Source of the DNA: Hydrolagus colliei
Lineage: Eukaryota
DNA: 64,000 nucleotides
NCBI GenBank assembly: GCA_035084275.1
Contig: CM068750.1
Location: 13,578,001-13,642,000, forward strand
Direction: 5' to 3'
The translations under genes and the position numbers were made by a program. Under the pieces are notes generated by a model. The model searched no databases. It worked only from the letters and a program-made list of their open reading frames with translations, and was not told where the DNA came from. Shown here piece after piece: positions 13,760 through 61,665 of the stretch (its first letter is position 1; every line of letters starts with the position of its first letter).

Positions 13760-13797
13760 AAAACGCAAAATACTGCAGATGCTGGAAGTCTGAAGCA
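13760..13797 (-). repeat. Fragment of the Penelope-like short repeat (distal part only)
   Basis: CAAAATACTGCAGATGCTGGAAGTCTGAA is the reverse complement of the TTCAGATTTCCAGCATCTGTAGTATTTT segment at about 61631-61660. Confidence 0.6.
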
Positions 13798-14004
13798 AGT
13801 GATTTCATATGTTCATATAAAAGGCATTCACTGTTCATTTATTCATTGAGTCTATCCTTTACATCACATACTTAAAACTTCATCATGAATATTTGATATT
13901 TAGAACATTGTTGATTACAACAAAACTATGAGTCTCACAGTCAATAATTTGAGTCCACATAGTAATCACTTTATTTATTCCTTCGTTTTTGACTCCTGTA
14001 CTTT

Positions 14005-15089: not shown

Positions 15090-15255
15090 TAGACTGGATC
15101 ATGAACAGGTAGCCAGGACGACTGGTTGAGGCCAGGACACTGGAATCATTTAAAAATCAGCTTGCTATTGTGACAGGGTATGGTAAGATAGATGTTCTGG
15201 GAGGTTGAGGTCTCATGGGCCAAATGATCTTTTTCATCCAAACCAATCTTGAGAT
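15090..15255 (+). mobile_element. CR1-like LINE 3' end
   Basis: TGGTTGAGGCCAGGACACTGGAATCATTTAAAAATCAGCTTG...ATGGGCCAAATGATCTTTTTCATCCAAACC; the same family appears at about 5150-5215, 6950-7050, 28190-28385 and 53690-53865. Confidence 0.6.
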
Positions 15256-15257
15256 GT

Positions 15258-15368
15258 GCAACAAAAACAAAAATCGCTGGGAACAACCAGTAGGTCAGAC
15301 AGCATCTATGGAGAAAGGAAAAATGAGTCAACATTTCGAGTCCTCCATGACCTTCATCAGAACTGGGA
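15258..15368 (-). mobile_element. Penelope-like element terminal (pLTR-like) short repeat
   Basis: Minus strand AGTTCTGATGAAGGTCATGGAGGACTCGAAATGTTGACTC...TCTCCATAGATGCTGTCTGACCTACTG; homologous copy at 61527-61665. Confidence 0.7.
15326..15364 (-). ncRNA. Minimal type-I hammerhead ribozyme motif
   Basis: AGUU-CUGAUGA-A-GGUC(AUGGAG)GACUC-GAAA-UGUU-GACU: both conserved core boxes, stem II, and stem I (AGUU/GACU) are present. Confidence 0.65.
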
Positions 15369-15524
15369 TGTGTGACAGCCACTATCTTTAACTCCAACAG
15401 AAACAGCTGCATTTAGAAACCTGTTTAGCAGCATTAATTAATTGTCCCCATTCAAAAGTCCTGAGGTGATTTTAGGTTTGTTTTAAATGTGTAATAGGGC
15501 ACAATTGAATTGGCTTTATTATTG

Positions 15525-15910
15525 GTGTCAGCTTGGCTCAGTTGGTACAAACCTGGTATGGAACCTTTGATCTCACAGTCTAGGCTGATACTCCATTGCA
15601 ATACTGAGGATATGCTGTATTATTCTTTGGGTGAGATTTTAAACCGAAGCCCCATCTGCCTGCTTAGGTGGACATTAAAGATCCGAAAAAAAGAGAAGCA
15701 AATTTCTCCCAGTGCCCTGGCTGACAATTGTCCAAACAAAATTGAGTCATTCACTGCATGTAAGCTTGTTTTGAGACATGTATGTAAATTGTCTGCCACA
15801 TTCACCTACAAAATACACAGTCATAATACTTTACAGTGAGTCCTGTGAAGCACTTTGAGATGTCCTCCCGACGTGGAAGGTGCTATGCCAAATGCAATGA
15901 TTATTATTCT
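15525..15910 (+). mobile_element. Deu-domain tRNA-SINE
   Basis: TGTCAGCTTGGCTCAGTTGGTA head; GAGATTTTAAACCGAAGCCCCATCTGCCTGCTTAGGTGGACATTAAAGATCC; L2 tail GAGATGTCCTCCCGACGTGGAAGGTGCTAT. Confidence 0.85.
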
Positions 15911-43930: not shown

Positions 43931-44124
43931 CCCTCTCTCTCATGGAAGTTCCTTTGATTTGGTAATCTTATCACCTAGCTCAAATGATGAACAAGCATGG
44001 CTCATTAAGAAGGATCAACAATTAAAAGCTGATACCTCTTGAGGGTAAATTGAATAAGTAGTTGGGCAGCTGAGCCTATTTATGTAACTGCCTGTGCTGT
44101 AGAGAGAATTACCTCCCCACTCAA

Positions 44125-45400
44125 TTCTATCTGTACCCAGTGCTAAGAAGGTTAGGATTAGCTGAGCTGCCACGGAACACCCCTCTGGGTTGGAATGCCC
44201 CGAGGTACCTGAAAGAGATCGAGACATTCCTATCCGAGAACCGGGTGGATCCCTCTGAAATTCCCAGGTGGACAACGCGGACAGTGTTAGACATCATCCG
44301 AGAGAGAGAGGTGAACGAAACCATGGTAGGGTATCCTCCGGCGACCGTTAGTCACATCTGGGAGAACGTTTCATCCCCAGCTCTGACTAACAAACACCAG
44401 GATGTGGCCTGGATGACGGTCAAGAGAGTGCTGGGACTCAAGAACTTTCTGATTAGAAGAGGCTTAGTGCAGTCCGAAAGTTGCCCTCGGGAGGGCTGTG
44501 GAGGGAAGGAGAATGAGGAACATCTGTTCCTGCATTGTGCCTTTGCCAAACAGGTGTGGAACAAGACAGAGTGGCTACTCTCGCAGTTCATCCCGGGAGT
44601 CCCTCTGTCAGCCCACTCGGTGTTGTATGGCCTCTTCTCAGGGGGACACGGAGTGACTGACCTACAATGTGCCTGGAGGGTCATCAACTCGGTCAAGCAT
44701 AGCCTATGGGTCTGCTGCAACCGAGAGACCTCCGGACATGGAAATAGGTCAGTGTCGGCCTGTTACAGGAGGGCGATGGTAAGTGTCCGGGAATATGTTA
44801 TCAGGGATGCCCTGGAGATAGGCTCAGACGAGGCCAAGGATAGGTGGGGCGTGATCTAGAATGCCACTGCTTAGAACTGCTTAGTACGTCGGGGACTCTA
44901 TACTCAGTGCATGTGGGGGGACGCTCGACCTGTAACCAGAGAGTGACCCCAAGTGAAGGGTTTTATTTGTAAAAGCCTCTCCCCATAAAGGGGGGAGCAT
45001 CGGAGTAGTTTCCCATTGTCTGTTTTTGTGTTTTTTTTTGTTTTTTGGCCTACCATCCGGTAAGGGAAGGATGGTGGAGCTGGGATTAGCCCCTTTGTAA
45101 CTGCTCCCTGTAAATAAAGGCAGCAGTGCAGAGAAACGAGGAGACCCTGACATATAAGGGGAATGTGGGTAATAGGCGTCTTATGTTTTGTGTCGAGAAT
45201 TACAGGGGGGTTTTTCCACAAAGACGGTGGATGGTTTTCTTTGGATGTCTTGGTTTATATTTCGCGTGGGTAGTGAGTCAGGGTCGCTGTGAGAATGTCA
45301 CGTGAGAAAATGGGTTTGCTGGTCTGTAACGGGAAAAGTTTAAAAAAACAAAATATATATGTTTTAAAAATATATATATATTTGTTTATTAAAAAAAAAA
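44125..45400 (+). mobile_element. Young 5'-truncated Tx1/L1-clade non-LTR retrotransposon
   Basis: Open ORF2 C-terminus, 3' UTR of about 540 bp, poly-A at 45391-45400, perfect 20-bp TSD AGAATTACCTCCCCACTCAA (44105-44124 and 45400-45419). Confidence 0.92.
44140..44859 (+). pseudogene. Tx1/L1 ORF2 C-terminal fragment with zf-RVT CCHC knuckle (239 codons, uninterrupted)
   Basis: IWENVSSPALTNKHQDVAW...CPREGCGGKENEEHLFLHCAFAKQVW...SVLYGLF...CAWRVINSVKHSLW; starts at the truncation point, so EN and RT are missing. Confidence 0.85.
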
Positions 45401-59194: not shown

Positions 59195-60750
59195 AACAAC
59201 AACAACAAAATTGCACTTATAAAGGCCTTTCACGTTAGGAGGATGTCCCAAAGCGCTGAACAGCCAGGTTGGGACCCAAGTGGGGGGGGGGGGGGTGTGG
59301 GGAGGGGGGGGGGAGAGGGTCGGGTTAGGGGGAAGGGGAAGGAGAGTGGGAACAGTTAATGGGCAGCCGAAGGTGCGGTCGAAGAGGAAGATCTTGAAGG
59401 AGGAAAGGGAGGAAGCAAGGTGGAGGGGCTGCGGGATGGAGTTCCACAGTGTGGGAGCAGAGAGGCTGAAAGCCCGGCCGCTGATGATTGGGCGGTTAGG
59501 GCGGTGGACGAGAAGCAGGCCTGAGTCTACTGAACGGAGAGTGTGGGCAGGCTGGTAGGGAGACAGTAGGTCAGAGAGATAGGTGGGGGCTAGGCCATGA
59601 ATGGCCTTGAAAGTGAGGACAAGGATCTTGAATTCGATCCTCTGGGTGACGGGGAGCCAGAGGAGACGGGCGAGGGTGGGAGTGATGTGGTCACAATGCC
59701 TGGTACGAGAGAGTACACAAGCTGCAGAATTCTGAATGATCTGCAGCCTGTGAATGGAAGAGATGGGGAGGCCGACGAGGAGAGAGTTCCCATAGTCGAG
59801 CCTGGAAGTGATAAAAGCATGGATGAGAGTTTTGGCAGTGTGTGGGGTGAGGTAGTGGCAGAGTCTGGCAATATTGCGGAGGTGATGGAAGGCTGTGCCG
59901 GTCATGGAGCGGATGTGGAGGAAGAAGGATAGTTCGGGGTCGAACAAGACACTCAGATTACTGATTGGCTTTAAAAGGTGGAGAGAGCAGCCTTGAATGC
60001 TGATGTTGTCAGCGCCTGAGGTGCGGAGGCGCCGACATGAGCCAATCAGGAGGGATTACGTCTTGTTGACATTGAGTTGTAGGAAATTTGCCCTCGCCCA
60101 GGACTCAATGTCGGACAGACATGCAGTCAGAACGCCAGTGGTCCTGGAAACGAGGGTTGACGCGGATAGGTAGAGTTGGGTGTCATCCGCATACATGTGG
60201 ACATTTACCCCATGTCTGCGGATGATGTCGCCCAGGGGGAGAGTGTAGAAGGTGAAGAGCAGGGGGCCAAGGACAGAGCCCTGGGGAACGCCACACGTGA
60301 TTGTGCGGGGGCTGGAGGAGAAGCCGTTGGAGGAGATGAAGCGAAGGCAGTGGGAGAGATAGGACTGGAATCATTCGAGGACAGAGCCTTGCAAGTTGAG
60401 GAGGGAGGAGAGGCTATGGAGGAGGATAGTGTGGTCCACAGTATCGAAGGCAGCGGATAGATCGAGGAGGATGAGGAGGCAGAGGGAGCCCTGGTCACAG
60501 ATGGTCAGGATTTTGTTTGTGACCTTGACCAGGGCAGTTTCCATGCTGTGGGAGGCACAGAAACCAATTGAAGGGGTTCGAGGAGTGAGTGCTTTGTGAG
60601 AAAAGAGCAGAGCTGGGAGGCAATCACTCTTTCAAGGACCTTGGAAAGGAAGGGAAGGTTGGAGATGGGCCGGTAACTTGATAGCTGCGACGCATCGAGG
60701 GAAAGGTTTTTTAAAGATGGGGATGATGGTGGCAGTTTTGAAGGGACACA
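59195..60750 (-). mobile_element. 5'-truncated L2 LINE (RT domain to 3' tail)
   Basis: YRPISNLPFLSKVLE (about 60630-60678), GVPQGS (about 60280-60298), [11 protein letters not shown] (about 60167-60199), C-terminal ORF FDPELSF...SRLDYGNSLL...WLPVTQRIEFK...GRAFSLSAPTLWNSIP; (CAA)n tail. Confidence 0.95.
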
Positions 60751-61526: not shown

Positions 61527-61665
61527 ATTCTGTTCTGACGAAGTGTTGTGGACCCGTAATGTTGACTCACTTTCCTTTCTCCATGGATGCTGCCTGACCT
61601 GCTGAATTTTCCCAGCAACTTCTGTTTTTGTTTCAGATTTCCAGCATCTGTAGTATTTTTTGTTT
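61527..61665 (+). mobile_element. Penelope-like terminal short repeat with decayed hammerhead motif
   Basis: TGTT-CTGACGA-AGTGTTGTGGACCC-GTAA-TGTT-GACT...CTCCATGGATGCTGCCTGACCTGCTGA...TTTCAGATTTCCAGCATCTG. Confidence 0.7.

Follow-up and report, generated by a model that had tools for sequence, protein, structure and literature searches.

A solo end-repeat stub of a Penelope-like element with a damaged minimal hammerhead motif, probably inactive, in Hydrolagus colliei

Our results suggest that the hammerhead motif on the minus strand of the window (the whole stretch of 64,000 nucleotides of Hydrolagus colliei DNA analysed here) lies in a solo end-repeat (pLTR) stub of a Penelope-like element (PLE), that the hammerhead of this family would cut only as a dimer, and that the window copy is likely inactive as a ribozyme. 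We give this joint reading a probability of roughly 85%. The stub spans 105 bp (15260..15364, minus strand) and is without the optional tail of 30-37 nt. Minimal hammerheads (min-HHR) have been described in the pLTRs of metazoan PLEs, the fish Xena, Poseidon and Neptune elements included (Cervera and De la Pena 2014, PMC4209133). The hammerhead class is already described, as the initial annotation had said in calling it known, and the window copy is an ordinary one, a single decaying stub out of about 20,000.

The hammerhead motif at 15364-15326

On the minus strand, positions 15364-15326 read AGTT-CTGATGA-A-GGTCATGGAGGACTC-GAAA-TG-T-T-GACT, and all the hammerhead boxes are present (CUGANGA, GAAA, U16.1 and H17). 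The 5' strand of helix I, AGUU (15361..15364), provides the first bases of the insertion, where the 5' ends of the family pile up, and pairs with the 3' strand GACU (15326..15329). This 4-bp helix I closes a type-I topology, and it is the same in the family. The intact core box CUGAUGA (C3-A9, 15354..15360) is followed by an extra A at 15353 and by a region of 15 nt that holds helix II and its loop (15338..15352). The second core box, GAAA, runs into the UG and U16.1 of a loop-less helix III (15331..15337), in which AUGU replaces the family palindrome ACGU. Next comes U17, and from hammerhead numbering the predicted cleavage site follows GUU, between 15330 and 15329 (15329..15330), a triplet that agrees with the family motif. 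Thus, the letters, the two boxes, stem I and the cleavage triplet that the initial annotation had read on this strand all stand. Its stem II fared less well: a helix II region is there, but the bulged pairing GGUC/GAC-U-C is the damaged form of what intact copies carry as GGGUC/GACCC with a 3-nt loop.

The motif is real. A descriptor composed of a 4-bp helix I, CUGANGA, a helix II of at least 4 bp and GAAA-NN-U-H matched one site in the 64-kb window and none in 300 dinucleotide shuffles of it (19.2 Mb). Note that this descriptor was composed with the motif already known, and the family counts given below are stronger evidence than the shuffle test. The 39-mer folded alone as a single strand showed nothing special and did not adopt the hammerhead fold (z 0.30), and the Rfam covariance models, the check proposed at the outset, returned no hammerhead match for the window copy at E values up to 10. 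These two blanks are what a chance match would have in its favour. Nevertheless, Rfam also returned no hammerhead match, at E up to 5, on six loci of the family, five of which are exact intact matches; since it misses intact copies too, its silence is uninformative about the window copy. Against chance stand the empty shuffles and the thousands of intact relatives at a known place in a PLE, and this reading, to which we would in any case grant next to no probability, is ruled out by 277 intact 35-mers, 3,504 core matches and the layout of a longer family locus, L151.

The repeat family and its parent element

Read from 15364 to 15260, the stub consists of the 39-nt motif followed by about 65 nt of downstream sequence. 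With C3 numbered 0, so that the cut site follows +28, it aligns to family positions -4 to +97; its local alignment is slightly longer (15248-15367). A genome search with the window repeat produced 2,737 first-look candidates, and among the 40 that were scored, the 39 besides the window itself were 85-93% identical. Moreover, the intact 35-nt version of the motif had 277 exact matches in the genome versus 0 in the control, the hammerhead core 3,504 versus 16, and the downstream 26-mer 5,874 versus 0. Eighty evenly spaced 10-kb stretches (800 kb) contained 22 matches in 16 insertions, and extrapolation from this sample gives about 20,000 insertions in the genome, with a range of 11,000-33,000.

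Intact copies read AGUU-CUGAYGA-A-GGGUC-(3 nt)-GACCC-GAAA-CG-U-U-GACU, and a second subfamily carries GGGUU-GUA-GACCC, with AGUC in some copies. By its letters, the motif of the family conforms fully to the minimal type-I hammerhead, with a 5-bp helix II and an ACGU helix III. It also has the extra base after A9 and a helix II closed by G10.1-C11.1, and the palindromic ACGU (15.2-16.2) is present in 35 of 75 copies that were unselected for the motif. The published min-HHR PLEs (PMC4209133) are described with this same set of characters: type-I topology, the extra base after A9, G10.1-C11.1, a palindromic loop-less helix III, a 4-bp helix I, the pLTR position and mostly single dispersed copies. 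Two differences emerge from the comparison: helix II has 5 bp and a 3-nt loop in this family as against 7-8 bp in the Schistosoma mansoni min-HHR, and the window copy is damaged, unlike the published ones (PMC4209133). Shark and chimaera terms were absent from the one supplement of that study that was searched. Looking for a second family with a different helix III gave 78 matches versus 31 in the control, about 70 of which were by eye decayed copies of the same family, and no relatives in other species turned up in a scan of metagenomes.

The window holds two further traces of the family. A second solo copy (61532..61664, plus strand) covers -3 to +129, tail included, and has a broken core in which GAAA reads GTAA; its sequence is 95% identical to the family majority, so that it is less diverged than the copy at 15260-15364. 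In addition, 13762-13798 (minus strand) matches only the family tail (+93 to +129) and lies 1.46 kb downstream of the 15260-15364 copy on the same strand.

Longer copies of the family extend upstream into a GIY-YIG coding stretch, and in 22 of 30 loci picked by this stretch alone the motif lies downstream on the same strand (the count includes the query locus itself and two near-identical duplicates). Translations of the decayed copies contain reverse transcriptase (RT) motifs further upstream of the GIY-YIG stretch. The nearest proteins in a homology search, 57-62% identical, come from sharks and rays, and longer protein relatives carry the RT and GIY-YIG domains (PF00078, PF01541); it was this search that settled the identity of the gene, a Pfam scan of three gene fragments having given no match. 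In locus L151 an inverted tail is followed by a motif-bearing end repeat and then by a broken RT-endonuclease gene of about 2.8 kb, whereas in L153-L155 the gene comes before the end repeat. None of the loci fetched had a visibly intact gene. By this homology, one gene combines an RT with a C-terminal GIY-YIG domain, and the parent is an endonuclease-bearing PLE. A CX4CxxC linker precedes the endonuclease in L151 and L113, and the CX2-5CxxC linker is the mark of Neptune and Nematis PLEs (Craig et al. 2021, PMC8557442); by its linker the parent is of the Neptune/Nematis type, and likely Neptune. The elements described in that study share with this one the RT, the linker and a GIY-YIG domain with two inner cysteines, as well as partial tandems, an inverted 5'-truncated copy and an optional tail. 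The corresponding hallmarks of PLEs were all found here, namely a partial tandem pLTR, an inverted truncated copy and an optional tail of 30-40 bp. The Penelope link put forward in the initial annotation is shown by these loci, and the RT/GIY-YIG gene that it had suggested looking for is found next to the repeat, upstream of it in L153-L155 and after it in L151.

Two observations were made in passing on these loci. At about 2590-2615 of L151, a pyrimidine run ending in TAG stands just before the ATG where coding similarity starts, and resembles a splice acceptor such as intron-bearing PLEs have. Three loci spaced by about 180 kb, L122, L123 and L124 (G000:C30), share 99.4-99.6% identity along 3.5 kb, which points to either a recent segmental repeat or an assembly duplication.

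The repeat had also been called retrozyme-like, and a non-autonomous retrozyme spreading as tandem arrays by way of circular RNA would indeed be short, non-coding and bearing a type-I hammerhead. Non-LTR retrozymes, which share these characters and an origin from PLE end repeats, are reported in the one cartilaginous fish sampled (Li et al. 2026, 10.64898/2026.07.22.740005). Those retrozymes are tandem units, whereas among the loci examined here the window has a solo stub and the family has inverted pairs. The check for tandem arrays proposed at the outset found none at the window locus, and head-to-tail units each with a hammerhead were absent from it. Across 328 loci there were just four scattered same-strand pairs (405-1313 nt apart) versus 29 opposite-strand pairs, and among the first 100 matches of the downstream pattern 13 pairs stood head to head within 1 kb, while none lay on the same strand. 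Head-to-head pairs such as these 29 are a PLE hallmark. Furthermore, copies run straight into the PLE gene, and a circular template would leave no fixed 5' edge at helix I. On the loci examined, a retrozyme is very improbable. The fact that the copies lead into an RT and GIY-YIG gene argues for a PLE end repeat and not a retrozyme array; of the label "pLTR/retrozyme-like remnant", the first half stands, on the 22 of 30 loci and L151, and the second is not supported, with no head-to-tail arrays in 328 loci.

The head-to-head inverted pairs often join inside helix II (L301:9116-9315, L324:3297-3508, L261/L262). In 8 of 51 copies the 5' end lies at +11 to +19, which, like these joins, may reflect fold-back at the helix II palindrome. 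Two inverted pairs, L036:1414-1524 and L044:1454-1563, form long hairpins whose microRNA-model scores lie below the gathering scores; such hairpins may give rise to double-stranded RNA or be mistaken for microRNAs.

Lesions and decay

Compared with its subfamily majority, the window copy has lost one G of helix II, has gained 3 nt in the loop (where the alignment is ambiguous) and has changed C to U in both helix II and helix III. As a result of folding predictions, helix II of the window copy reaches -2.3 kcal/mol at best, and -0.1 in the pairing first drawn for it, versus -5.8 and -4.2 kcal/mol in two intact copies. Similarly, the predicted helix III dimer duplex is at +0.2 kcal/mol with the AUGU of the window and at -4.1 with ACGU. 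The window contains just one more copy that bears the motif, at a distance of 46 kb, on the opposite strand and with a broken core. In S. mansoni, single minimal hammerheads do not cut and dimers cut weakly (PMC4209133). With a damaged helix II, an ACGU decayed to AUGU and no partner nearby, we consider that the window copy is probably an inactive ribozyme.

The opposite reading would be that this copy still works, perhaps as a ribozyme used by the host, cutting a host transcript after GUU. The window copy does retain all 11 core bases and its 4-bp helix I, and a helix II of 4 bp is still feasible. Nonetheless, a surviving core is common by chance, since 30 of the 75 copies unselected for the motif keep all 11 bases, and when the CG of helix III and the G10.1-C11.1 pair are also asked for only 11 of the 75 remain. 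In the window copy, helix II has lost at least 3.5 kcal/mol and no stable G-C pair sits beside the core, the helix III dimer is predicted to be unstable, and the nearest second motif is the broken one 46 kb off on the other strand. Nor was a host exon recognised in the 96 open frames scanned with Pfam, out of the 125 of at least 75 aa in the window. We regard a working, perhaps host-used ribozyme as most unlikely; a partner or a protein helper might still allow weak activity.

In those 96 frames only two LINE RT fragments passed the Pfam cut-off, with two weak matches below it; the two fragments correspond to LINE-type RT remnants at 44074-44859 (plus strand) and 60056-60370 (minus strand), matching zf-RVT and RVT_1. 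Just beyond the stub, 15632-15908 contains two further dispersed repeats, likely SINE fragments, which recur several times in the window.

The initial annotation had taken AUGU for a CpG-decayed ACGU, and the family agrees with it: the helix III dinucleotide is CG in 35 of the 75 unselected copies, CA in 21, TG in 11 and something else in 8. These counts show CpG decay of helix III in the family, as judged across its copies. An apparent excess of conservation in the core was tried and rejected. The core mutated less than the downstream control before base-composition matching (3.2% versus 6.3%, p 0.002), and this difference vanished after matching, the core then mutating no less than the downstream bases (p 0.14 and 0.85). 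The covariation check proposed at the outset gave, between the subfamilies of this genome, no more than one-sided helix changes (C-G to U-G at two pairs). Five of the 75 copies have A-U at pair 10.1-11.1, where both changes are transitions, one of them at a CpG. Once inserted, the stubs would decay unprotected.

Copy ends and a possible start of the element RNA

To locate the edges of the repeat we used 51 copies, taken from the evenly spaced DNA or picked by downstream sequence, all unselected for the hammerhead and with both halves of inverted pairs counted. The sample is small, local alignment places the ends only to within a few bases, and 3' ends that are longer than the reference are clipped at its end, +129. 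The 5' ends fell at -7 to +1 in 16 copies, at -16 to -8 in 1, at +2 to +10 in 9 and at +11 to +19 in 8, and none of the 51 started at the cut site (+27 to +31). On the 3' side, 25 copies ended between +77 and +105, and the other 26 formed a second group ending at +124 or further. In contigs of run X1, loose ends lie at -4, -3, +1 and +94, those at -4, -3 and +1 having unrelated flanks, and in RNA runs of another organism they lie at +94 and at +131 to +133. Finally, of 40 solo stubs whose 5' ends lie at -6 to -1, some of them from loci selected by the motif, 13 had flanking direct repeats of at least 8 nt versus 14 of 1,560 mismatched pairs, which indicates that many stubs were inserted as short units.

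The window copy may have such a flank. An 8-nt direct repeat with one mismatch consists of CACATCCC upstream (15365..15372, minus strand) and CACATCTC downstream (15251..15258, minus strand), with 7 of 8 bases matching and a chance of 1.2%. The 15372-15365/15258-15251 repeat is possibly a target-site duplication, or else decayed element sequence; in the former case, the insertion would begin with the first base of helix I (15364).

A 5' edge at helix I, with none at the cut site, suggests copying from uncut RNA. The RNA of the element would likely start at the first base of helix I, as judged solely from DNA ends, and an RT stop would give the same picture; RT would likely initiate within this RNA, some 100 or 130 nt further downstream, and run off its 5' end, and this run-off would leave stubs of 100-135 bp that hold the whole uncut motif. 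A similar route is described for a PLE of Anolis, the Poseidon element PAc, which inserts from uncut RNA with an internal RT start (Frangieh et al. 2024, PMC11167929). The two 3' ends of the stubs match the tail and the two internal RT start sites published for it. PAc likewise has two 3' ends about 30-37 nt apart and copies that run through the cut site, as expected with an uncut RNA template. PAc differs in belonging to another clade and in that its gene starts inside the hammerhead, while in the present family coding similarity is first seen over 130 nt past C3 (PMC11167929). Stubs that retain the motif uncut and end with its first base agree with the 2024 in vitro result (PMC11167929), as opposed to the 2014 model, in which cut and circularised RNA is the template (PMC4209133).

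From these ends we propose, as a tentative idea with the odds still against it, that the first base of the hammerhead is exactly the first base of the RNA, which would place the ribozyme under the cap, and that the thousands of stubs are run-off products of uncut RNA through the internal RT start. The hammerhead would then act as a switch, removing a capped leader of 33 nt only when paired with a second motif about 3 kb downstream, and thereby withdrawing the RNA from the translation/insertion pool. An additional G just upstream, perhaps derived from the cap, was present in 4 of 8 solo stubs starting at -4, too few to use. In the RNA reads of another organism placed on L151, the stub region was covered in both directions with no pile-up of molecule ends; these are poly-A single-cell libraries, which cannot show ribozyme ends. 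A search of RNA runs listed none for the window stretch.

The family assignment could also be kept with the 5' pile-up at helix I explained by an RT stop or by a splice acceptor (a pyrimidine tract followed by CAG) instead of a transcription start. The edge does follow a pyrimidine-rich stretch ending in CCCCAG, and in the PLE of D. virilis an intron ends at the 5' end of helix I (PMC4209133), with transcription starting 46 nt before that intron. Against this reading, the upstream flanks of the 40 solo stubs share no visible exon and the loose ends agree at only 0.34-0.39. In addition, among the joints listed for the RNA runs (four more lie beyond those listed) none lands at the helix I site. 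This site also fits the initiator pattern YYANWYY, with its A at -4. An RT stop or splice acceptor is, on this evidence, conceivable and somewhat unlikely.

A literature search, to which Repbase and Dfam were external, found no description of this family or of a 5' edge at helix I, and the family may be annotated in Repbase, in Dfam or in the supplements of 10.64898/2026.07.22.740005. The single window copy matters little, being one of about 20,000 decaying stubs. The family is likely a cartilaginous-fish example to be added to a described class, and it indicates that Rfam misses such motifs even when they are intact. Finally, the ends of the stubs bear on the purpose of the hammerheads that PLEs carry.
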